DNA from: Pseudomonadota bacterium | Lineage (GTDB): Bacteria; Myxococcota; Myxococcia; Myxococcales; Vulgatibacteraceae | Reading direction: 5' to 3' | Assembly (NCBI GenBank): GCA_003242475.2 | Contig: QGUN02000003.1 | Span: forward strand, 245-64,244 | DNA length: 64,000 bases | Shown: positions 35,894-47,486 of the stretch, piece after piece | Layout: the number at the start of each line of letters is the position of its first letter | How positions within the stretch are numbered: the first letter of the stretch is position 1 | Notes under the pieces: model-generated | What the model was told of the DNA's origin: nothing | Databases searched by the model: none | What the model saw: the letters and a program-made list of their open reading frames with translations, nothing else | Translations under genes and position numbers: made by a program

Positions 35894-37944
35894 TGCGCCG
35901 GAGGATCTGGTTCCTTCTCGCCCTGGCGACGGCCGCCTGCGCCGAAGAGGTGATCCCCTCCTTCGGTGACCTCCAGACGCCGGTGGCCCTCGCGGTCCAT
36001 CAGCCCTCCGGGCGGGTCCTCGTCGCCTCGCAGGACGCCGACGAGCTGCGCGTCTTCGACCTGGAGTCGCGCGAGTACCTGGCGGCGCCGGCCGTCTCCT
36101 TTCCGCTCTCCATCCCCACCGTGCCGAGCCCGCGGCTCCTCGTCGCCGGCGAGCGCTTCGCCTTCGTGGTCTCGGGGGCCGACGGCGCGGTCGGCTTCGT
36201 GGACGCGGTGGTGCCGCCCGGCGCCTTCGGGCCGCGCAGCGTGGACGACGACGAGGGGCGTCCGGTGGCCGTCTTCGGCGGCCTGCTCCCGACCGCGGCG
36301 CTTCCCCTCGTCAGCCCCCACCACTACGCCGAAGGCCTGGGCGATCACGCCCTCGTCGGCGGACTTTCCCTCGACGGGACGGGCAGCCGGATCGTCGTCG
36401 TTCGCCCTCCCTTCGAAGGGGTGGAGCCGGAGGTGGTGGCCGAGCTCGACCTGCCCGGGATCGGGCTGGCGGGGCTGGCGCTCGAGCCCGCCTTCGAGGG
36501 CGACGTGCCCGATTGCCGCGCCGTGGCCATCGCCGACCTCGGCGGGCCCGGCGGGGAGGGCGGGGGGATCCACCTCGGGCGGGTACGGGTCGAGGCCGAC
36601 GGCAGCGTAGCGCTGGAGGCGCCGGCCGAGCGGATCGAGGTACGCGTGGAGGTGGTGCTCCCCGACGGCTCGGTCGAGGAGCGCGCGGCGGCGGTGCGCG
36701 CGGTGGAATTCGCCCCGGTCCGTCCGGCTCCCGACCTCGCCAGGGCGGTGGCCGCCGACCCTTGCGTGCTGCGCTCGGGGCGCCTCTACGCCATCCTCGA
36801 CCGCGCCCACTGCGGCGGGGCGGCGGTCTGCCCGAACTTCGCGGTCATCGACCTGCCCTCCGGCGCGCTGGCGACCGACCGCAGGGACGGCGGCGCCGCC
36901 GCCTACGAACTGCCGGGGGCTCCCCTGAGCCTGCTGCGCATCGACGGTCCGATCCAGGTCGAGGGCGCCTTCGTCGACGCCGTCGTGGAGGAGGACGGCC
37001 GGCCCGAGCTGCGCTCGGAGCCTGCCGGGCGCATCTTCGGCCTCGTCCTCGTGGCCGGGAGCGACGGGAGCGTGACCTTCGTCGCGGGCGGCATCGGCAC
37101 CACCCTCACGGGGCCCGGCGGGCGCCGTCCCTCCGATCCCGCCTTCCTGCTCGACGCCGAGAACGCCGTTCCCGGCATCACCAGCGGCCCGGTCCGCATC
37201 GATCGCCGGGCCACCGTCTTGCCGCGGATCTCGTTCCCGCCCGAGGCGCGGCCGCGCGACGAGGAATGGACCGCGGCCTTCGAGGGGCCCTTGCCGGGGC
37301 TGGCCAACCTCGGCGGACCGGCGAATCTCGTCGGCGATCGCTTCGAGCTTCCCGCGTCGAGCGCGCAGGATTTCGTCATGCCGCTGCCCGTCCTCGCCTC
37401 GGAGGATCCGGAGGAGGCCGACCGCCTCGTCCCGCTGCAGTCGACCGCGGTCGAGCCTTCCTGCGACGGCTTCCCGGTGGTGGGGGTGGAGGAGGGCGGC
37501 CGCGCCCTGCGCGTGCGGCGGGACGCGCCCGGCTTCTCCAACCCTCCCGAGTGCCTGGAGGGCAACGTCTCCTTCGCCATCCTTCCGCCGCGCGCCCGGC
37601 CCTGGACGCTGACGGGGAGCCGGACCGGCTTCGCGGGGCGGGCGCCGGCCGATCCCGGTCTGCGGCAGCAGGTCCGCTTCGGTCGTCGGCTTCTCTTCGA
37701 GTTCCAGCCGCCCGAGGAGGCGGTCGAGCGCGGCGCCACCTTCCGCTGGACCACCAGCTCCGGCTTCACCTTCCTGCAGGTCTCCCGCTCGTCGCTCTTG
37801 CTTCCGGCCTCGTTGGCCCTTTACCGGCTCGGCGATGCGCAGGACGTGCGGGTGATCGTCGCCTTCAGCGGCTCGGACGCGATCGCGATCTTCGACCCCG
37901 CCGTCCCGCCGACGCCACGGTCGGGGCTGGACGTCTATCGTTGA
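35890..37944 (+). CDS. Putative lipoprotein, beta-propeller-like; related in style to the preceding gene
   Basis: Signal IWFLLALATAAC. N-terminal blade PVALAVHQPSGRVLVASQDADELRVFDL. Overlaps the previous gene by 4 nt. Confidence 0.6.
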   Translation: MMRRRIWFLLALATAACAEEVIPSFGDLQTPVALAVHQPSGRVLVASQDADELRVFDLESREYLAAPAVSFPLSIPTVPSPRLLVAGERFAFVVSGADGAVGFVDAVVPPGAFGPRSVDDDEGRPVAVFGGLLPTAALPLVSPHHYAEGLGDHALVGGLSLDGTGSRIVVVRPPFEGVEPEVVAELDLPGIGLAGLALEPAFEGDVPDCRAVAIADLGGPGGEGGGIHLGRVRVEADGSVALEAPAERIEVRVEVVLPDGSVEERAAAVRAVEFAPVRPAPDLARAVAADPCVLRSGRLYAILDRAHCGGAAVCPNFAVIDLPSGALATDRRDGGAAAYELPGAPLSLLRIDGPIQVEGAFVDAVVEEDGRPELRSEPAGRIFGLVLVAGSDGSVTFVAGGIGTTLTGPGGRRPSDPAFLLDAENAVPGITSGPVRIDRRATVLPRISFPPEARPRDEEWTAAFEGPLPGLANLGGPANLVGDRFELPASSAQDFVMPLPVLASEDPEEADRLVPLQSTAVEPSCDGFPVVGVEEGGRALRVRRDAPGFSNPPECLEGNVSFAILPPRARPWTLTGSRTGFAGRAPADPGLRQQVRFGRRLLFEFQPPEEAVERGATFRWTTSSGFTFLQVSRSSLLLPASLALYRLGDAQDVRVIVAFSGSDAIAIFDPAVPPTPRSGLDVYR

Positions 37945-37972
37945 GAGGCCAGCGGGAAGGGCGGCAAGGCGC

Positions 37973-39937
37973 TTGCACCAGAGGGTGCACATGGCGCCCG
38001 ATCTCCTCCCCGTCTTCCTCGTCGTCCTCGCGGCCTCGGCTGCGTCCATCGCGGTCTACACGGACCTGAAGGCCCGCCGGATCCCCGACTGGCTCACCCT
38101 GCCGACCCTGGCGACGGCGCTGCTGGGGCGGCTGGCGATGGCCGGAATTTCGGGCCCCCTTGGCCTGCTCGACGGGCTTCTGGGCCTGGCTGTCGCCTTC
38201 CTCGCCTTCTTCCTCCTCGCCCTCGGCGGCGGGATGGGGATGGGCGACGTCAAGCTGATGGCGGCGATCGGGGCGATCCTCGGCTGGGAACGGACGCTGT
38301 ACGCCCTCGTCTTCGTTTCCCTGGCGGGCGGCGTCCAGGCCATCGCCTGGACCCTGCGAAGCGGGCGACTCCTCCAGACCCTCGTCCGCTCGCTCAGGCG
38401 GCTCGTCCGGCCCTTCGCGCGGCCGGAGAAGGACGAGGGGCAGTACCTCCCCTACGCGGTGGCGATCGCCGCCGGCACGCTGGCCACCTTCCTCTTCCGC
38501 GGCTTCGCTCTTCTTCTCGCACTTTTCGTCGCCGCGGGGCCTCGCTCGGCCGCGGCGGAGTCGGTGATCCATCTCGGCGTCGGCACGCAGAAGGTCCTCA
38601 AGATTCGCGGCGGCATTCAGCGCATCGCCGTCGGCAATCCGGAGATCGCCGACGTGCGGCCCCTGGGGGACGGCGAGATCCTCGTCGTGGGCGTGCGCGA
38701 GGGAAGGACCACGCTGCTGGTCTGGCGAGCCAGCGGCGCTCGCGACAGCCACCTGGTGGTGGTGCGCAAGGTTTCCACCGAGGACCTCGCCGACGAGGTT
38801 CGGGCCCTCCTCGGCGAACGCGAGGGACTGGTCGTTCGGGCCGCGGGGGAACGGGTGATCATCGACGGCGAGGCCTATACCCCCGAGGACCACCGCCGCG
38901 TGCAGGCCGTCCTCGAGCTCTACCCCGACGTCCGCTCCATGGTCCGGGTCACGGAGCACGCCCGCAACCTCTCCGTCGCGGAGATCAACCGCGAGCTTCG
39001 GAGGGCCGGGCTCGGTCACGTGGTGGCGCAGGCGATCGGGGGAAGGATCGTCCTCGAAGGCCACGTCGAATCGGAGGTCGAGAAGCGCAAGGCCGAGCTC
39101 GTCGTCGCGGCTCTGGGCGAGACCGCCGAAAACCTCGTCCAGCTCGGCCTGCGGCGCATGGTCCTGTCGGAGGTGCATTTCCTCGAGGTGCGACGGTCGA
39201 AGATGCGCCAGCTCGGCATCCGCTTTCCCTTCGACGTCGCGGGCAGCGCCGCGGCCGCCACCGCGATCCAGGGGAACTTCCCGGTGGACGGCGGGGGCCG
39301 CGTCACCGTCGGCAGCTACGAGGCGCTGGTGGAGGGCACGGGGCAGTGGTCGCTTCGCATGGCGGTCGACAAGGGATTCGGCCGCCTCCTCGCCCAGCCC
39401 ACCCTGGTCTGCGCCTCGGGCGAGGAGGCCGAGTTCCTCGCCGGCGGCGAGGTGCCGCTGCCGCTCATCACCCAGAACAGCAATACCGTCGAGTATCGCA
39501 AGTACGGCGTCGTCTTGCGGCTGCGGCCCACCGCCGACCGCAACGGAAACATCGTCACCGAGATCGAGGCGGAGGTCTCCGAGCTCGATCGCTCCGTCGC
39601 CGTCGCCGTCGGTCCCAACGTCTCCGTCCCCGGCTTTCGCAACCGCTCGGTGAAGACCTCGGTGACCGTGCGAAGCGGCGAGACCATCGTGCTTTCCGGC
39701 GTCTACACCCTCGACGAGCAGAAGAGCGTCTCCAAGGTCCCGCTGCTCGGCGACATCCCCATCCTCGGCGAGCTCTTCAAGCAGCGCACCACCGACGACA
39801 CCGAACGCGAACTGCTCATCTTCGTCACGCCTCGCCTCGTCAATCCGGAGAGCCGGGAGGTGGTCTCCGCCATCGAGCGGATGCGCGAGACCTACGAGGC
39901 GGGCGAGCGCGAACTTGGATTCGGAATCCTCGACTGA
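37973..39937 (+). CDS. Single ORF joining an A24 prepilin peptidase (CpaA/TadV-like) to a CpaC/RcpA-type secretin
   Basis: Residues 1 to about 175 carry YTDLKARRIPD and GGGMGMGDVKL, the two Asp motifs, with multiple TM segments. An internal signal-like segment GFALLLALFVAAGPRSAAA-ES follows. Next comes a pilus N-terminal domain (VIHLGVGTQKVLKIRGGIQRIAVGNPEIADV). Then a secretin core (LAQPTLVCASGEEAEFLAGGEVP...VPLLGDIPILGELFK...ERELLIFVTPRLV). There is no stop and no ATG/GTG/TTG at the junction. Confidence 0.8.
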   Translation: MHQRVHMAPDLLPVFLVVLAASAASIAVYTDLKARRIPDWLTLPTLATALLGRLAMAGISGPLGLLDGLLGLAVAFLAFFLLALGGGMGMGDVKLMAAIGAILGWERTLYALVFVSLAGGVQAIAWTLRSGRLLQTLVRSLRRLVRPFARPEKDEGQYLPYAVAIAAGTLATFLFRGFALLLALFVAAGPRSAAAESVIHLGVGTQKVLKIRGGIQRIAVGNPEIADVRPLGDGEILVVGVREGRTTLLVWRASGARDSHLVVVRKVSTEDLADEVRALLGEREGLVVRAAGERVIIDGEAYTPEDHRRVQAVLELYPDVRSMVRVTEHARNLSVAEINRELRRAGLGHVVAQAIGGRIVLEGHVESEVEKRKAELVVAALGETAENLVQLGLRRMVLSEVHFLEVRRSKMRQLGIRFPFDVAGSAAAATAIQGNFPVDGGGRVTVGSYEALVEGTGQWSLRMAVDKGFGRLLAQPTLVCASGEEAEFLAGGEVPLPLITQNSNTVEYRKYGVVLRLRPTADRNGNIVTEIEAEVSELDRSVAVAVGPNVSVPGFRNRSVKTSVTVRSGETIVLSGVYTLDEQKSVSKVPLLGDIPILGELFKQRTTDDTERELLIFVTPRLVNPESREVVSAIERMRETYEAGERELGFGILD

Positions 39938-39964
39938 GGTCTCGACCTTTTTGCGGAGGAAGCC

Positions 39965-41506
39965 ATGGAAATCCGGATCACCGGTCCCGGCGATGCCTCC
40001 TTCACCTTTTCGCTTGTCGAGAGCGCCCTGGTGGGACGGGCCGTGGGATGCGATCTGAGGCTGGACGATCCGCAGGTCTCCAAGCGCCACGCGCGGATCT
40101 GGCTGGAGGGGGCTCGGGCGTGGATCGAAGACCTCGGCTCGCGCAACGGCACCTGGATCGACGGCCGGCGGGTCGAAGGCCCCGCGCCCATCCCGCCCGA
40201 CGCGCGCCTCTGCGTGGGGCCCTTCTCACTCGAAGTGTGTGCATCCGAGAAAGGGGACGCGGCCGAGGATCCGGTGGAACTTCGGCGGGCACTCATCGAG
40301 GAGGTGATCGCCGCCCTCGACCCGCGGCGGCTCGAGATCGAGAACCTTCCCGAGGAGGAGTTGCGCCGCCGCACCGACGAGGCCATCGCGCGCATCCTCG
40401 CCGAAGCTCGCGAAGCGATCCCGCCCTCGATCACCGTCGAGTCGCTGCACCGAGAGATCCTCGACGAGGTCCTCGGGCTGGGGCCCCTGGAGGCGCTTCT
40501 GGCCGACGACTCCATCACCGAGGTGATGGTCAACGGCCCTGCCCGGATCTACGTGGAGCGGGAGGGACGGCTGGAGCTTTCCCCGCGGGTCTTCTCCTCC
40601 GAACGCGCGCTCCTCGGTGCGATCGAGCGGATCGCCGCTCGCGTCGGACGCCGCATCGACGAGGCGTCGCCCATCGTCGACGCGCGCCTACCCGACGGCT
40701 CGCGCGTCTGCGCCATCATCCCGCCTTTGGCGCTCTGCGGCCCCTGTCTCACCATTCGCAAGTTCCGCCACGATCGGCTCGGCCTCGACGACCTGGTACG
40801 GCGGGGCACGCTCTCCGAGCCGATGCGAAGATTTCTCGAGCTGGCGGTGCGGGCTCGGCGCAACGTGGTGATCTCCGGCGGGACCGGCTCGGGAAAGACC
40901 ACGCTTCTCAACGCGCTCACCGAGTTCTTCTCCGAGGGAGAGCGGATCCTCACGGTGGAGGACGCCGCCGAGCTGCAGATCCGCAAGCCGCACTGGGTTC
41001 GTCTCGAGGCCCGGCCGCCCAACATGGAAGGAAAGGGCGCCGTCACCATCCGCGACCTGGTGCGGGCCAGCTTGCGCATGCGCCCCGATCGCATCGTGGT
41101 CGGCGAATGTCGAGGCGGCGAGGCGCTCGACATGCTGCAGGCGATGAATACCGGCCACGATGGCTCGCTGACCACCGTGCACGCCAACTCGCCCCGCGAC
41201 GCCATCGCCCGCATGGAGACGCTCTGCCTCATGGCGGGGATGGACCTGCCATCCCGCGCCATCCGCGAGCAGATCGCCAGCGCCGTTCACCTGGTGGTGC
41301 AGACCGCGCGCCTCCCCGACGGCCGGCGGCGGGTGGTCTCCATCGCCGAGGTCACGGGCATGGAGGGGGAGCGGGTGACGCTCCAGGAGATCTTCGTCTG
41401 GGACGGCGGCCACCGGGCCGTGGGCTTCGTCCCCGCCTTTTGCGAGCGCATGCGCGAACACGGAGAGGACCTCGACCTCTCGATCTTCCAGCCCGGGGGA
41501 GGTTGA
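39965..41506 (+). CDS. cpaF: FHA domain fused to a CpaF/TadA-type secretion ATPase
   Basis: FHA signature VGRAVGCDLRLDDPQVSKRHARIW...IEDLGSRNGTWIDGRRV. ATPase motifs include TEVMVNGP, Walker A ISGGTGSGKTTLLNAL, ERILTVEDAAEL, RMRPDRIVVGECRGGEA and NTGHDGSLTTVHAN. Confidence 0.88.
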   Translation: MEIRITGPGDASFTFSLVESALVGRAVGCDLRLDDPQVSKRHARIWLEGARAWIEDLGSRNGTWIDGRRVEGPAPIPPDARLCVGPFSLEVCASEKGDAAEDPVELRRALIEEVIAALDPRRLEIENLPEEELRRRTDEAIARILAEAREAIPPSITVESLHREILDEVLGLGPLEALLADDSITEVMVNGPARIYVEREGRLELSPRVFSSERALLGAIERIAARVGRRIDEASPIVDARLPDGSRVCAIIPPLALCGPCLTIRKFRHDRLGLDDLVRRGTLSEPMRRFLELAVRARRNVVISGGTGSGKTTLLNALTEFFSEGERILTVEDAAELQIRKPHWVRLEARPPNMEGKGAVTIRDLVRASLRMRPDRIVVGECRGGEALDMLQAMNTGHDGSLTTVHANSPRDAIARMETLCLMAGMDLPSRAIREQIASAVHLVVQTARLPDGRRRVVSIAEVTGMEGERVTLQEIFVWDGGHRAVGFVPAFCERMREHGEDLDLSIFQPGGG

Positions 41507-41509
41507 TGG

Positions 41510-42592
41510 ATGCGGGCGAGAGCATCTGTGCTTTTCGTTTCCGCGCTCTGCGCGGCGGTGGTGGCGGCGCTGGCGAGCCGGGCCATCGTCGCGCGCGGGT
41601 GGGAAGCAGCGCCAGCGGAGGCGCCGGGCCCCGACCTCGCCGATTTCACCGCGGAGCGGAAGGGCCGGGAACTCGCCCTCTCCCGGCTGGTCGAGGAGGG
41701 GAGGTGGGAGACGGTCGAACGCGAGGCGCAGGCCCTGCTCGATCTCGACCCGATCAGCGAGGTCGCTCGCGCGGCGCTCGAGCGCAGCCGCGAGGAGATC
41801 GACGCCCGCGACCGGCTCGAGAAGGCGCTTCACCTGCTCGAGGAGGGGCGCGAGGAGGATGCCCTTCTCGGGCTCCTGGCGATCCCGGAGGCGACCGAGG
41901 CGGGGACGAGGGCGAGGGTGGAGGCCGGGCCGCTCCGGGAGCGGGTGGCAAGGAGGGCCCGAGCGGATTGCCTCGGCCTGGCCCGCGCCGGCCGCCACGA
42001 GGAAGCGCTGAGGCGATGCCGGCTCCACCTGGATCTGACCTGCGGCGAGGAGGCCGACCCCGCGGTTCTGCAGCGGCAGCGTTGGCTGGAGCGGAAGCTC
42101 GGCCTCGCCGGGGATGCGGCCTGGAGCTGCCCCCAGCGCTCGGTCGCGATCGTGGAGGCCGGCGGGGCAGACGTGCGGGCCATCCTGCGGGCCTGGGAAC
42201 GAGGCGAGGCCGGCGACCACGCCGCGCTGCGGCTCGAGCGCCTCGCCGAAAAGGGAGACGCGGAGGCCGCCCGCCACGCGGAAGCGGTACGCGAGGCGGA
42301 GATCCGCCTGCGGGAAGCCGCCTCCTCCCTCCTCGACGGGGAGCTGGAGCGGGCGTACCGGGCCCTCGGGCAGGCGGCCGCCACCGAGGAGCGGCTTCTG
42401 GGGCGGAGGCGCTCGCTGCGCTACCTCGAGCTCTCCGAGCGCTTCGCCCGGCTCGCTTTGAAGCGGGGGCTGGAGCTTTCCGAAAAGCGACGTTTCCGCG
42501 AGGCCCGGGAGATCCTACGCCTGGCCGCCGAGCTCGATCCCTCCAACCTGGACGTCTTGCGCGCCCTATGGCGACTGGAGGACGCCGAGTAG
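41510..42592 (+). CDS. Membrane-anchored helical-repeat (TPR-like) protein, possibly a TadD-like accessory
   Basis: N-terminal hydrophobic anchor VLFVSALCAAVVAALA. The remainder is Ala/Glu/Arg/Leu-rich helical repeats. The start lies 3 nt after the cpaF stop. Confidence 0.5.
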   Translation: MRARASVLFVSALCAAVVAALASRAIVARGWEAAPAEAPGPDLADFTAERKGRELALSRLVEEGRWETVEREAQALLDLDPISEVARAALERSREEIDARDRLEKALHLLEEGREEDALLGLLAIPEATEAGTRARVEAGPLRERVARRARADCLGLARAGRHEEALRRCRLHLDLTCGEEADPAVLQRQRWLERKLGLAGDAAWSCPQRSVAIVEAGGADVRAILRAWERGEAGDHAALRLERLAEKGDAEAARHAEAVREAEIRLREAASSLLDGELERAYRALGQAAATEERLLGRRRSLRYLELSERFARLALKRGLELSEKRRFREAREILRLAAELDPSNLDVLRALWRLEDAE

Positions 42593-42775
42593 GGCGGACG
42601 AGGGGCCGGCCCGGAGCGCGCCTCCAGAGCTCGGCAGCCGGGCGTGATCGTCGCGATCGGGCACCGCCGCAAGGCGCGGGTACGAGGACCGCAGCCCCGC
42701 CTCCGTCGCCACTGCAGGATGGTCCCGAATACAGGCTCCTAGGGCGATGTCGGGCGCGTCTGCTATACCGACATC

Positions 42776-45505
42776 ATGGAATCCGGCACCCGACCCGTCC
42801 TGACCCTGATCGACGGCTCCGCCTACATCTTCCGCGCCTACCACGCCATCCGTGCCGAACTCTCCACCTCGACGGGCATCCCCACCCGCGCCGTCTACGG
42901 CTTCACCCGGATGCTCCTCAAGTCGTTGCGGGAGGCCTCACCCACCCACGTGGCGGTGGTCTGGGATCGGGACGGGAGGGCGGTTCGCCACCAGCTCGAC
43001 CCCGAGTACAAGGCCCATCGCGAGGAGACGCCCGACGACCTCAAGGCCCAGTTCCCCTACATCCGGCAGGTGGTCGAGGCCCTGGAGGTGCCGAGCGTGG
43101 AGAAGGAGGGCTGGGAGGCGGACGACGTCATCGCCACCTTGACTCGCCGCGCCGTCGAGGAGGGCTTCGACGTGGTCATCGTCACCGGCGACAAGGATTT
43201 CTCCCAGCTCGTCGGCCCCCACGTGCGGCTCTACGACGGCATGCTCGACCGTTGGACGGGGCCCGCCGAGGTGGAGGAGCGGTGGGGCGTGCCGCCCGAG
43301 CTCTTCGTCGAGGTACAAAGCCTCGTCGGCGATACCTCCGACAACATCCCCGGCGTGCCCGGGGTGGGGAAGAAGACCGCGGCGGACCTCGTGCGCAAGT
43401 ACGGCAGGCTCGAGGAGGTGATCGCGGCGTGCGAGCGCGGCGAGGTCAAGAGCAAGCGGATCGCGGAGGCGATCCTCGCCGCGAAGGAGAGGCTCGCGCT
43501 CAACCGCGACCTCGTCCGGCTCCGCGACGACCTGGAGCTCGAACGCGGGCCGGCCGACCTCGCCCGGCGCACGCCGGACGTCGGCCGCGTGCAGAACCTC
43601 TTCCGCGAGCTCGAGTTCTACGCGCTCTTGCGCGAACTTCCCGCGGTCCTGCGCCAGGTGGGGGTTCCCTACGTCCAGCCGGCGTCACGGGAGCCGGTCC
43701 AGGCCGCCGAATTCCAGATCCCGCCCGTCGAGATCGTCGTCGAGCCGGAGGAATTCGGGCGGCTGCTCTCCCGCGTCCGCGGGGCCGAGCGCCTCGGGTT
43801 GCGCCTGGCGCCTCCCGAGGAGCGGGTCCACCTGGCCTCGCCCCCGGGCGTCGCCCTGGCTTTCCCCGGCGAGGCGAGCGCCTACGTTCCCCTGGGGCAT
43901 CAGGGCCTGTTCGAGCGGGGTGCCGCCGATCCCGACGCCTGGCTTCGCGAGCTGGTGAAAGCGGTGGGAGAGCGGCCCTGGTCCGGCATCCAGACCAAGC
44001 GCGACCTCCTCCTCGTCCTCGCGCGCGGCCTCTCGATTCCCGGGCCCGCGGGCGACGCGGAGCTCGCGGCCTACCTTCTCAACCCGGCCCGGCGCACATT
44101 CGACATCGTCGACCTGGCGCGGGAAAAGCTCGGCGCCGAACTACGCGAGTACGCCGAGATCGCCGGCGCGGGAAGGGATCGGCGGCCCTTCGCGCTCCTC
44201 GACGCGGAGGTCGGCGGCACTTGGCTCGCCCAGACCGCGGCCTGCGCCCTGGCCGTGGAGGAGCGGTTGCGGCCGGAACTCGAGCAGGCGGGCCTCGACC
44301 GGATCTACCGCGAGCTCGAGATCCCTCTCGTCCCCATCCTGGCGCGGATGGAGCACGTGGGCGTCAAGCTCGATCCCTCGAGGCTGGAGGCGCTCGGCAA
44401 GGAGGTCGACGCCCGCCTCGCCGAGGTGCTGGAGGCCTGCCATCGCGTGGCCGGGCGCGAGGTGAACGTGGCTTCCCCGCGCCAGCTCGCCCAGCTCCTC
44501 TTCGAGGAGCTCAAGCTCCCGGTGATCAAGCGGACCAAGACCGGCCCCTCCACCGACCACGAGGTGCTCGAGAAGCTCGCCGAGCAGCACCCGCTGCCGA
44601 AGCTGATCCTCGAGCACCGCATGCTGGCCAAGCTCAAGGGAACCTACATCGACACGCTGCCCCAGCTCGTCTCCGAGGACGGCCGCCTGCGCACCACCTT
44701 CGAGCAGGCGGGAACCGCCACGGGGCGGCTCTCCTCGAGCAATCCCAATTTGATGAACATCCCCATTCGCACCGAGCTGGGACGGCGGATCCGCCAGGCC
44801 TTCGTCGCCGAGGAGGGCTACCTCCTCCTCACCGCCGACTACTCCCAGATCGAGATGCGGGTCCTCGCCCACGTCACCGGCGACCCCGGGCTGATCCGTG
44901 CGCTGCGCGAAGGGGCCGACATCCACCGCCGCACCGCATCCGAGATCTTCGACGTGAAGGAAACGGAGGTGACGCCGGAGCAGCGGGGCGTGGCCAAGAT
45001 GGTCAACTACGCCGTGGCTTACGGCCTTTCTGCCTACGGCCTCTCCACCCGACTGGACATCACGCCCCGCGAGGCGGCCGACATCATCGCCCGCTACTTC
45101 GAGCGCTACGCGGGGGTGAAGGCCTGGATCGACCGCATCGTGGAGGAGGCCCGGCAAAAGGGCTACGTCACCACCCTGGAGGGGAGGCGGCGCTTCTTGC
45201 CGGACCTGCGCTCGCGCAACCCGAATCTGCGGCAGGCGGCGGAGCGGGCGGCGATCAACATGCCCATCCAGGGCACCGCCGCCGACATCATGAAACGGGC
45301 GATGATCCGCGTCGACCAGGCGCTCTCGGCGGCCCGCAGCGGGGCGAGGCTGCTTCTGCAGGTCCACGACGAGCTCGTCCTCGAGGTGCCCCAGGGGGAA
45401 GTCGAGAAGGTCAGCCACATCGTTCGCGAGGGCATGGAGGGCGCGGCGCACCTGGACGTTCCCCTGGTGGCGGAGATCAACGTCGGCGAAACCTGGGAGA
45501 AATGA
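42776..45505 (+). CDS. polA: DNA polymerase I
   Basis: 5' nuclease region LIDGSAYIFRAYHA...VTGDKDFSQL. Polymerase motifs DYSQIEMRVLAH, RGVAKMVNYAVAYG and LLQVHDELVLEV. Confidence 0.95.
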   Translation: MESGTRPVLTLIDGSAYIFRAYHAIRAELSTSTGIPTRAVYGFTRMLLKSLREASPTHVAVVWDRDGRAVRHQLDPEYKAHREETPDDLKAQFPYIRQVVEALEVPSVEKEGWEADDVIATLTRRAVEEGFDVVIVTGDKDFSQLVGPHVRLYDGMLDRWTGPAEVEERWGVPPELFVEVQSLVGDTSDNIPGVPGVGKKTAADLVRKYGRLEEVIAACERGEVKSKRIAEAILAAKERLALNRDLVRLRDDLELERGPADLARRTPDVGRVQNLFRELEFYALLRELPAVLRQVGVPYVQPASREPVQAAEFQIPPVEIVVEPEEFGRLLSRVRGAERLGLRLAPPEERVHLASPPGVALAFPGEASAYVPLGHQGLFERGAADPDAWLRELVKAVGERPWSGIQTKRDLLLVLARGLSIPGPAGDAELAAYLLNPARRTFDIVDLAREKLGAELREYAEIAGAGRDRRPFALLDAEVGGTWLAQTAACALAVEERLRPELEQAGLDRIYRELEIPLVPILARMEHVGVKLDPSRLEALGKEVDARLAEVLEACHRVAGREVNVASPRQLAQLLFEELKLPVIKRTKTGPSTDHEVLEKLAEQHPLPKLILEHRMLAKLKGTYIDTLPQLVSEDGRLRTTFEQAGTATGRLSSSNPNLMNIPIRTELGRRIRQAFVAEEGYLLLTADYSQIEMRVLAHVTGDPGLIRALREGADIHRRTASEIFDVKETEVTPEQRGVAKMVNYAVAYGLSAYGLSTRLDITPREAADIIARYFERYAGVKAWIDRIVEEARQKGYVTTLEGRRRFLPDLRSRNPNLRQAAERAAINMPIQGTAADIMKRAMIRVDQALSAARSGARLLLQVHDELVLEVPQGEVEKVSHIVREGMEGAAHLDVPLVAEINVGETWEK

Positions 45506-45666
45506 GCCAGGCCGGTCTCGCCCCGCGGAAGGGCCGGTCAGTCGCATCGCCGAAATCGCGTCCTGGCCGCGGCGGCCGGTGTGCGACACCCCTTCCGGCC
45601 CCTGTCTTGTCGTCGGTCCGCGGGTCTTGATGACGTTTTCGCCCCGATGTTGCGGAGTCGATTCGC

Positions 45667-46296
45667 ATGAAGTCGAAAGCGTGGTTCGGACTGGTCGCGG
45701 CCCTCTTCTTCTCGACGGGCTGCGAGCTGCTCTGGGAGTGGTACTACGGCGACGTGGACGAGCCCTGCGCCGACGTATGGGAGCCCGTCTGCGGCCGCGA
45801 CGGCGTGACGTATCCCAACGCCTGCGTCGCCCGCCAGGAGGGGGTGGCCGTCGCCTACCGGGGCGAGTGCGAGGACGACTGCCGACTCGATCGCAACGTG
45901 CGTTGCGAGGTCATGTGCGACTGTCCGCGGATCTGGGAGCCGGTCTGCGACGCTGCGGGCAACGTCTACGCGAATCGGTGCTTCGCGCGCTGCGCCGAGG
46001 CCGGCGAGGTGGAGCCCTGCGACGTCGACCGCTGCGCCTGCCCCGACGTGTGGGAGCCGGTCTGTGACGCGCGAGGCAACGTTTACGCCAACCGCTGCGA
46101 GGCCCGCTGCCTGGGCGAGACCCGGGTGCGTCCCTGCGATCGGGAGGGCGATCCGGTCCCGCCCCGCGAGCCTGGCGAGGATTGCGAATGCCCCCTGCTG
46201 TGGGCGCCCGTTTGCACGGCCGACGGCTCCGTCTATCCCAACCGCTGCGTGGCTGCCTGCGAGGGGGTCTACGACGTCGTTCCCTGCGAAAGCTGA
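45667..46296 (+). CDS. Lipoprotein with four tandem Kazal-type (serine protease inhibitor-like) domains
   Basis: Signal WFGLVAALFFSTGC. Four repeats of C-x4-5-(E/A)PVC-x3-G-x-(T/V)Y-x-N-x-C-x-A-x-C...C: CADVWEPVCGRDGVTYPNAC, CPRIWEPVCDAAGNVYANRC, CPDVWEPVCDARGNVYANRC, CPLLWAPVCTADGSVYPNRC. Confidence 0.8.
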   Translation: MKSKAWFGLVAALFFSTGCELLWEWYYGDVDEPCADVWEPVCGRDGVTYPNACVARQEGVAVAYRGECEDDCRLDRNVRCEVMCDCPRIWEPVCDAAGNVYANRCFARCAEAGEVEPCDVDRCACPDVWEPVCDARGNVYANRCEARCLGETRVRPCDREGDPVPPREPGEDCECPLLWAPVCTADGSVYPNRCVAACEGVYDVVPCES

Positions 46297-46406: not shown

Positions 46407-47486
46407 TCAGTGCAGGTAACGGGGCCGGGAAGGGGGCTCGAAGCCGTCCTCGCCCGGCCCGCGTTCTTCCGAGGACCCGGCCGCGGGCCATTCGCCGAGC
46501 GGGGCGGTCCCGCTCCACCCGCGGCCCTCGTCCGGCCCGGGAGCGGAGGGGGCTTCCGCGGGGGACGTGAACGCCTCGTCGAGCGCTTCCTCGGCCTCCA
46601 TCTCCTCGAGCCGCCGCCGGCGGCTCCTCTTCTTTCTCCACGCGGCCACGAGGAGGACGAGCGCCGCGCTCGCCCAGAGGAGCTCGGTGTCCATGAGGAC
46701 GGCGAGCCAGCCGTAGCGCAGCTTCAGGCTACGCCTCCACTCCTCCTCCAGAACGACGAGCGGCTTGCCGTAGGCCTGGGTCAGCGCCTCGGGGAAGGCG
46801 CGGCCTTCCGCCAGACCCGCGATCAGGCGGCGAAAGGGCTCGCCCCGCTCGACCGCGATCAGGTGGCCGACCATCGAGGCGCTCTGGGCGTAGGCGAGGT
46901 TCACGTCGGTGGGCGAGTGGGGCCAGTCCTCGTCGAGTTCCGAGAGGGGGATCAGCGCCCGGGCCAGGGTGGCGCGCGCCACCACGGCGGCGCGCGAGCG
47001 GTCCCACTCGCTGGCCACGTGCAGGGCGAAGCCCTCGTTGAACCAGCGCGGGACGGGGCCCTGGACGAGCCGTCCAAGGGCGACGTGGGCGAACTCGTGC
47101 AGGACCACGTTGCGCACGCTCCCGGCCCGGCCCGAGGCCTGCGCGTCCACGACGAGGATTCCCAGGCCGGAGAAGGCCACGCCCGCGGCCCAGCCCGGTG
47201 GCCGGGCGCCGGCAGGCTGGAGGGCCTGGAATTCCTCGCGGCCGTAGGCGATGCGGATCTCCACCGGGCGCGGGTCGGAAAGGCCGAGGATGGCCTCGAT
47301 CCGGCGCCAGTCGTCGGCGAGGTCTTCGGCGAGGTCGCGGGCGATCGCCTCCGCGGGCCCGGGAGCGGCCACGAGGACGAGGCGGGGATCGTCGGGTACG
47401 GGGACCGGTCGAACCTCGATGGCCGCAGCGGCGGCGGAAAGGAACGGGGCGAGGAGAAGGGCCAGTAGCAGGAGCGCGCGCCTCAT
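46407..47486 (-). CDS. Secreted zinc metallopeptidase (MA-clan, HExxH) with a C-terminal TM anchor
   Basis: Signal [18 protein letters not shown]. Contains [12 protein letters not shown]...[10 protein letters not shown], a TM segment [15 protein letters not shown] and a charged tail. Its ATG overlaps the DUF167 stop (ATGA). Confidence 0.65.

Follow-up and report, generated by a model that had tools for sequence, protein, structure and literature searches.

A conserved peptidase-secretin gene fusion in a Kil-type locus of a Myxococcota lineage near Vulgatibacter and its probable processing by signal peptidase I

The DNA analysed here (the window) is a stretch of 64,000 nucleotides (nt) from contig QGUN02000003.1 (positions 245 to 64,244, forward strand) of the assembly GCA_003242475.2, which is labelled 'Pseudomonadota bacterium'. 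A single open reading frame (ORF) in the window encodes both an A24 prepilin peptidase and a secretin, proteins that are encoded in Myxococcus by two separate genes, kilA and kilC (cpaA and cpaC), of the Kil (Tad-like) cluster 1. As judged from protein similarity and gene order, the locus is an orthologue of that cluster in which kilA and kilC were fused in place. Taken as a whole, an in-place fusion with a single membrane span at the joint, from which the secretin is released by signal peptidase I, is the account that we consider rather probable. The Tad/Kil system itself is known, and the two modules are standard components of its pilus machines; what is new is that a polytopic enzyme of the inner membrane and a pore of the outer membrane are stably encoded together in a single polypeptide.

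The uninterrupted frame extends from a TTG at 37973 to 39937 on the forward strand and corresponds to 654 amino acids (aa). However, the true start is almost certainly the ATG at 37991, giving a product of 648 aa, because a Shine-Dalgarno-like sequence lies directly upstream (Table 1) and the homologues all begin at the methionine matching this codon (MAPD, MTPD or MAP...). Residue numbers given here are those of the 648-aa protein; those of the initial annotation, which had been made from the sequence of the window, and the coordinates of the Pfam matches follow the 654-aa numbering and are 6 higher. In the latter numbering, Peptidase_A24 was matched at 20-124 (E=1e-19), T2SS-T3SS_pil_N at 196-264 (E=4e-18) and Secretin at 468-623 (E=2e-42), together with a weak BON match, and no match to Secretin_N was found in the Pfam scan of the fused protein. 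The NCBIfam search with the same protein gave only sub-threshold matches, to secretin models such as GspD and PilQ and, more faintly, to the prepilin peptidase EppA. The window protein is identical to P0001 (NCBI MFO7155240.1), and the public entries of the fused sequences are annotated merely as 'pilus assembly protein N-terminal domain-containing protein'. No promoter or terminator was found inside the fused gene in a scan of 37700-40100. Long off-frame ORFs are frequent in the window, such as one of 2094 aa at 39346..45630 (+) across kilF, the next gene and polA; this and many further antisense or off-frame ORFs are artefacts of the 69% G+C content.

The N-terminal half scored 71.1 bits against PF01478 (cut-off 26.5). 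The catalytic residue D25 (nt 38063-38065) lies in YTDLKARRIPD and D86 (nt 38246-38248) in GMGMGDVKL, and both D25 and D86 (GMGD) are invariant in the fused and the stand-alone homologues. The AlphaFold2 (AF2) model of this half has helices at 5-28, 33-51, 59-78, 84-97 (short), 99-124 and 155-181 and an amphipathic helix at 127-139, and the last peptidase helix carries PYAxAIAxGT (nt 38450-38497). At about 170 aa and without an N-terminal methyltransferase domain, the module is of the size of stand-alone CpaA proteins (171 aa), which in many lineages end 0-10 residues past the last helix (PYAxAIAxGTLxxFFSR, then stop). The match to the FlaK sequence (3s0x) was marginal (E=0.62), with both Asp residues aligned, and Foldseek searches with the whole model were dominated by secretins. 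On these features the N-terminal half is recognisable as a bona fide A24 prepilin peptidase of the CpaA/TadV subtype. The C-terminal half is 51-58% identical to the secretins of Vulgatibacter and Myxococcus (51-53% to Myxococcus), and Foldseek matched it to secretin structures with E values of 7e-27 to 5e-13, among them RcpA (8odn) at 30% identity. Homology and purifying selection suggest that this half forms a multimeric pore of the outer membrane. The initial annotation had described one 654-codon frame without a stop, with both A24 motifs and several transmembrane helices in its first part and a CpaC/RcpA-type secretin in the remainder. Apart from the start codon, all of this was borne out, including the assignment of the first part to Peptidase_A24, which it had named as one of the points at which its reading could fail.

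The fusion is also not confined to one assembly. In a search across 5.8 billion proteins, the three-domain architecture of the window protein was found in nine clusters (P0001-P0007, P0009 and P0010; 634-649 aa, 63-100% identity), which come from NCBI, JGI, ENA and Logan assemblies. The exact window protein occurs on 38 contigs, and the eight further fused clusters extend down to 63% identity. A search for proteins with both domains had been suggested in the initial annotation, which considered that orthologues might always prove to be two genes; in these nine clusters they are one. Six fused loci were read at the DNA level (the window, L085, L001, L086, L087 and L088), and each of them contains a single stop-free ORF in which A-x-A-E-S follows at a distance of 33 residues from the PY motif in the peptidase's last helix. 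Pairwise ratios of nonsynonymous to synonymous substitution (dN/dS, Nei-Gojobori) were 0.25-0.57 for the peptidase and 0.10-0.36 for the secretin, with dS up to about 1.1. The single ORF, the fixed spacing and the low dN/dS at a dS of about 1 argue that the fusion is old, is translated in this frame and is under purifying selection in both halves. When the secretin part was analysed by neighbour-joining, the fused sequences formed one clade nested among the unfused ones, which points to a single fusion event. An artefact of assembly or sequencing, or a pseudogene, can be discounted with near certainty given the 38 contigs, the eight diverged clusters and dN/dS well below 1, since the same frame is found in nine clusters and both catalytic Asp residues are kept at a dS of about 1.

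The two halves are joined by RGFALLLALFVAAGPRSAAA/ES (nt 38498-38563), which has the layout of a Sec signal peptide: Arg170 as n-region, a hydrophobic core of 13 residues, Pro184 (-6), Ala187 (-3) and Ala189 (-1), with the predicted signal peptidase I site between nt 38557 and 38558 (A189/E190). The residues expected around a site for this enzyme are present: both -3 and -1 are small, a helix breaker occurs close to -6, and +1 is not Pro. R170, P184, A187, A189, E190 and S191 are invariant in all nine fused sequences, whereas the hydrophobic core is variable yet essentially uncharged (a lone Asp occurs at the last core position in P0010) and position -2 is free to be A, E, Q or H. Moreover, the junction lines up position by position with the signal peptides of stand-alone secretins, M-x-R-(12-15 hydrophobic)-P-x-x-A-x-A, and the predicted cleavage site occupies the same alignment position as in the unfused relatives. 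The resemblance to a signal peptide with an AxA site that had been noticed in the initial annotation is therefore supported by the invariant A187 and A189 and by this alignment. Unlike the signal peptides of separately translated secretin precursors, the one in the fused protein is internal and lacks a Met of its own.

How the fusion arose can be traced by comparison with L004, the closest syntenic unfused relative, whose secretin and separate CpaA are 56% and 53% identical to the two halves, respectively. Its cpaA ends with GTACSLFLGDGGGW and a stop (...SLFLGDGGGW), and the DNA at the end of cpaA and the start of cpaC reads GGAGGTGGGTGGTGA, where the GTG start of cpaC overlaps the TGA stop of cpaA (GTGA). 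A strong Shine-Dalgarno sequence, GGAGGTGGG, lies inside the peptidase tail of L004 and is deleted in the fused clade, in which ...GTLATFLF runs straight into R-G-F-(hydrophobic). The arrangement in L004 has the features of classic translational coupling. The ancestor would likewise have had translationally coupled genes, with the cpaA stop overlapping the cpaC start. The loss of a short piece, corresponding to some 23 nt of sequence like that of L004, would have taken away the peptidase tail together with its Shine-Dalgarno sequence, the stop codon and the first two codons of the secretin, and the two frames would have been joined at the signal-peptide Arg. The fusion is a genuine one, made in place and vertically inherited in a Myxococcota lineage near Vulgatibacter.

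The topology of the joint was considered from charge counts and from the AF2 model. Averaged over the nine fused sequences, the number of K+R is 0 both at the N-terminus and in loop 2, against 3.0 in loop 1, 0.9 in loop 4 and 7.7 in loop 5, a distribution that suggests an outside N-terminus and loops 1, 3 and 5 inside. With loop 5 in the cytoplasm, the last helix (P154-F169) would run from inside to outside and the C-terminus of the peptidase would be periplasmic. Signal peptides insert N-in/C-out. In the AF2 model (mean predicted local distance difference test score, pLDDT, 80) a continuous helix spans 155-181, residues 183-189 (GPRSAAA) are disordered and the first strand of the secretin is at 190. 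In the Kyte-Doolittle profile there is a single broad peak over 154-183, and the last peptidase helix and the signal core are separated by R170 alone. Two full spans would leave the secretin in the cytoplasm, and we infer exactly one crossing between loop 5 and the secretin, with the signal as an extension of the last helix. The charge counts and the model both favour a single in-to-out crossing by transmembrane helix 6 and the signal core. A hairpin, in which the last peptidase helix leads out and the signal leads back in, was rejected as it would place the secretin in the cytoplasm. The same argument tells against the suggestion in the initial annotation that the signal acts as an extra transmembrane helix of the peptidase, since the last helix is already predicted to run from inside to outside. 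To our knowledge, FlaK is the only A24 enzyme with a crystal structure. FlaK has six transmembrane helices, and both of its catalytic Asp residues are located at the cytoplasmic face (PMC4985597, PMC3584216).

Given such a topology, the precursor would be inserted co-translationally, and the last peptidase helix and the signal core, both with N-in/C-out polarity, would make up a single extended hydrophobic segment. This segment would pass through the membrane one time and, acting as the last signal-anchor, drive the secretin across. Signal peptidase I would cut after A187-x-A189 and before E190-S191. The released secretin would begin with ESVIHLG (ESVIHLGVGTQK), i.e., with the same N-terminus as in unfused relatives, and proceed to the outer membrane, while about 20 hydrophobic residues would stay behind at the C-terminus of the peptidase. 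Release by signal peptidase I had already been put forward in the initial annotation and is, in view of the conserved A-x-A pattern, the best-supported route. Cleavage is suggested because a functionless relic would be expected, at a dS of about 1, to decay as the core did. Viral polyproteins are a precedent for processing of this kind, and the Bradyrhizobium japonicum FbcH cytochrome b-c1 precursor is another, for which the literature search gave nothing usable. A further precedent is from Staphylococcus aureus, where SpsB, a type I signal peptidase, cuts the polytopic LtaS between its membrane and extracellular domains (PMC12260438).

Several points weigh against release by signal peptidase I. 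With the last helix in its native position, the signal core would be located outside or at the membrane surface, an unusual presentation for signal peptidase I, so that either a 'sliding' of the helix or a cut in a linker, as in LtaS, has to be assumed. While it is cut, the helix may have to be located deeper by a few residues, with R170 snorkelling; alternatively, the cut may be made in a linker exposed at the surface. For the junction helix, the AF2 confidence is just 52-69. Furthermore, the invariance of A-x-A-E-S could partly be caused by constraint on the mature N-terminus and not by cleavage.

If the chain were not cut, a secretin ring of 13-14 subunits would stay covalently anchored to a ring of peptidases and bridge both membranes. 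The single ORF without an independent start and the predicted continuity of the junction helix with the peptidase would agree with this, and a structural linker could be the reason why the length from PY to AxAES is fixed at 33 residues in every member. However, at most about 8 flexible residues (183-189) are available between the helix and the first secretin beta-strand, and KilC-type secretins are described as unusually short and lacking the N0 domain (PMC8460266), which is in line with the lacking Secretin_N match here. With so short a linker and no N0, the outer membrane would be geometrically hard to reach, and the conserved cleavage-site pattern (Pro at -6 and a variable -2 flanked by small residues at -3 and -1) has no obvious role in a tether. 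An uncleaved product is therefore unlikely, and the permanent tether across the periplasm that was offered as an alternative in the initial annotation does not fit well. It is more doubtful still that an uncleaved ring of 13-14 peptidases serves as a trans-envelope scaffold which holds the pilin-processing enzyme around the base of the pilus channel; we know of no type IV filament machine with a secretin-bound ring of prepilin peptidases.

The secretin could alternatively be made separately by internal initiation, at the in-frame GTG at 38459 or at a non-canonical codon, with the read-through fusion as a tolerated by-product. The GTG, which is shared by the window and L001 and from which a product would keep the signal peptide, lies within the last peptidase helix. 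The statement in the initial annotation that neither a stop nor a start precedes the secretin accordingly holds for the stop, but for the start it needs correction by this codon, which is not conserved: the codon at this position is GTC in L085 (a 90% relative) and L088 and CTC in L086 and L087. In L086 and L088 there is no in-frame ATG, GTG or TTG across the junction (codons 140-195), and no start codon or Shine-Dalgarno sequence near the junction is conserved among the six fused loci. The Shine-Dalgarno sequence of the split relative is deleted, and the closest purine-rich stretch in the window ends 18 nt 5' of the GTG, so that no well-spaced Shine-Dalgarno sequence is present there. Ribosomes translating the peptidase would in any case read through. 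Internal initiation is thus very improbable, and because no internal start is conserved and the ancestral Shine-Dalgarno sequence and start are gone, it seems that the secretin can be made only as the C-terminal part of the fusion. Finally, processing of the junction by the A24 domain itself at R-G/F, in the manner of a type IV prepilin, which would free a pilin-like, N-terminally anchored secretin precursor, is scarcely credible, for although R170-G171-F172 followed by a hydrophobic stretch occurs in seven of the nine fused sequences (G171 in eight) and the signal peptides of stand-alone relatives have no Gly at that place, P0010 has Met instead of the essential -1 Gly, neither a Glu at +5 nor a Flp-type G/xxxxEY motif is present, and Arg-Gly would have to be at the cytoplasmic face, against the in-to-out polarity of the preceding helix.

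If signal peptidase I releases the secretin, the fusion is a bacterial 'polyprotein' that is tolerated and possibly nearly neutral, since a pre-existing processing site would separate the products. The initial annotation had expected that the fusion enforces 1:1 co-synthesis. This follows trivially from the fusion, and nothing suggests that it is the selected benefit. In M. xanthus, kilA is reported to be expressed at very low levels (PMC8460266), which makes it unlikely that peptidase at the level of the secretin is a selected trait. A near-neutral fusion of translationally coupled neighbours explains the data equally well as selected 1:1 synthesis.

The neighbourhood of the fused gene supports its assignment to a Kil system. 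The gene order in the window is glyS, two genes without Pfam match, the fusion, an FHA-ATPase gene, a further gene without Pfam match and polA; the order from glyS to polA is common to all fused loci and their closest unfused relatives, and the FHA-ATPase gene has the same position in all related loci. In the Myxococcus locus (L089), genes for proteins of 538 aa and 694 aa, an FHA protein, a Peptidase_A24 protein (178 aa) and, after a gap of 30 nt, the secretin (482 aa) are followed by the FHA-ATPase, an FHA/TPR protein and polA. Kil cluster 1 of M. xanthus (MXAN_3102-3108) contains the prepilin peptidase KilA, the secretin KilC and the FHA-ATPase KilF (Seef et al. 2021, PMC8460266). The match of the Myxococcus gene order to this cluster identifies the gene in the window as a kilA-kilC fusion. 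Two predicted outer-membrane lipoproteins are mentioned in Kil cluster 1 (PMC8460266), and the 459-aa and 684-aa genes, a pair that is syntenic in L001, L004, L085, L086, L088 and L089 (Myxococcus included), are probably these accessory lipoproteins. Among the genes of the window that were examined, there was no pilin gene and no second Kil cluster (platform proteins, pilins); killing of prey on contact is a further mark of Kil systems.

Table 1. Coordinates of the fused gene, its parts and neighbouring genes in the window
Feature	Coordinates	Strand	Evidence or remark
Fused kilA-kilC (cpaA-cpaC) gene	37991..39937	+	648 codons + TGA; G+C at third codon positions 0.91
Shine-Dalgarno-like AGAGGGT	37980..37986	+	4-5 nt 5' of ATG 37991; direct sequence reading
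A24 prepilin peptidase module, residues 1-169	37991..38497	+	PF01478; six predicted helices
In-frame GTG (V157) within last peptidase helix	38459-38461	+	13 codons before R170; unconserved candidate internal start
Retained secretin signal peptide, R170-A189	38498..38557	+	Column counts; alignment with split relatives
Mature secretin (predicted), E190-D648	38558..39934	+	PF13629, PF00263, Foldseek
Pilus N-terminal beta domain	38558-38764	+	PF13629, 65.4 bits
Secretin domain	39374-39841	+	PF00263, 144.8 bits; BON-like domain also present in secretin half
Conserved gene, 459 aa	34514..35893	+	No Pfam match; lipoprotein-like N-terminus
Conserved gene, 684 aa	35890..37944	+	No Pfam match; lipoprotein-like N-terminus MMRRRIWFLLALATAACAEE
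kilF-like ATPase, FHA domain and CpaF/TadA-type T2SSE	39965..41506	+	Pfam FHA 2e-17, T2SSE 3.5e-63
Conserved 360-aa gene between kilF and polA	41510..42592	+	No Pfam match; equivalent gene in L001, L085, L002 and L089

Several differences among the related loci were observed. The separate FHA gene before kilA in Myxococcus (L089 3445..4323) is missing in the window, L085, L086 and L088. In Myxococcus the slot between kilF and polA is occupied by a 740-aa FHA/TPR protein (L089 8411..10633), and in the fused clade this part of the cluster has been replaced or has shrunk considerably. In L001 (4705..5900), the locus of P0009, a 117-aa gene and a Ser/Thr protein kinase gene lie directly 5' of the fusion; the kinase fits FHA-based phospho-signalling in Kil systems. 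In the rearranged locus of Vulgatibacter (L002, opposite strand), the genes in the place of the lipoprotein-like pair have faint BNR/Sortilin beta-propeller matches. In Vulgatibacter (L002/L003) the A24 peptidase gene is located about 5 kb upstream of the secretin gene, behind an FHA gene, with three opposite-strand genes between them. As the peptidase is away from the secretin there, the adjacency of kilA and kilC is broken in one neighbour lineage and turned into a fusion in another. Just past polA in the window, a secreted-looking protein of 209 aa with four Kazal-type serine protease inhibitor repeats is encoded at 45667..46296 (+), followed on the opposite strand by a Peptidase_MA_2 gene (46407..47486); both are conserved in L085.

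The PolA protein of the window is 65-67% identical to that of Vulgatibacter and about 50% identical to those of Anaeromyxobacter and Myxococcaceae, which assigns the organism to a lineage of Myxococcota close to Vulgatibacter, although the metagenome-assembled genome is labelled 'Pseudomonadota bacterium'. A partial homologue, P0008, is labelled 'Fredinandcohnia', a genus of Bacillota. Since the similarity of both PolA and the secretin points to Myxococcota near Vulgatibacter, the two labels look like errors of binning or classification.

No peptidase-secretin fusion was found in the literature searched on Tad/Kil systems and the type IV filament superfamily, in agreement with the initial annotation, whose author knew of no such description. 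When 1.84 billion cluster representatives were searched exhaustively with HMMER, 43,618 relatives were obtained, of which the best 150 were inspected; among these 150, peptidase and secretin sequence occurred together solely in P0001 and in the fragment P0122 (Peptidase_A24 + pil_N) of the same clade. The long secretins P0319, P0389, P0338, P0345, P0279, P0304, P0362 and P0343 have no hidden A24 domain, and the N-terminal extensions of P0389 and P0362 are of low complexity or unrelated. A scan of genome contigs with the fused protein gave no fused relative and was swamped by the GMGMGDVK pattern of Acidobacteriota CpaA genes. One contig, L037, matched residues 19-239, seemingly across the junction, and turned out to carry a stand-alone peptidase gene (184 aa) with a CpaE-like gene after it. 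Further independent fusions may occur among more distant relatives.

The practical reach of the fusion is limited because it belongs to a small uncultured clade. If release by signal peptidase I is correct, the fused protein would be a clean natural case in which the general secretion machinery resolves a bacterial polyprotein, and it would show how translationally coupled neighbours can fuse without functional loss. It also acts as a natural 'reporter fusion': with a functional periplasmic/outer-membrane domain attached right after the last helix, it speaks for a C-terminus of CpaA-type peptidases on the periplasmic side.

Among known systems, Kil cluster 1 of Myxococcus shares with the window the lipoprotein-like or unknown pair, the A24 peptidase, the N0-less secretin (pil_N + BON + Secretin), the FHA-CpaF ATPase, one more gene and polA. 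The two differ in that the window has one ORF whereas kilA and kilC of Myxococcus are separated by the 30-nt spacer, and in the FHA gene before kilA, which the window lacks. With the CpaA/TadV/FppA peptidases and FlaK (PDB 3S0X) the first half has in common the length of about 170 residues, the Asp ending helix 1, the GxGD opening the short helix 4, the basic cytoplasmic loop and PYAxAIAxG in the last helix; however, the chain in the window continues into a signal peptide and a secretin of 459 residues, which the stand-alone enzymes do not. The second half has the same domain set and fold as the CpaC/RcpA secretins of Tad systems (P. aeruginosa RcpA, PDB 8ODN), with the predicted cleavage site at the position found in stand-alone relatives, and differs from them in that its signal peptide is internal, with neither its own Met nor an independent translation start. 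Finally, S. aureus LtaS, as cut by SpsB, likewise has a multi-span membrane module ahead of an extracytoplasmic one, and a small-x-small site lies between the two. The cut in LtaS inactivates one enzyme, whereas the cut predicted here would separate two unrelated parts destined for different membranes.

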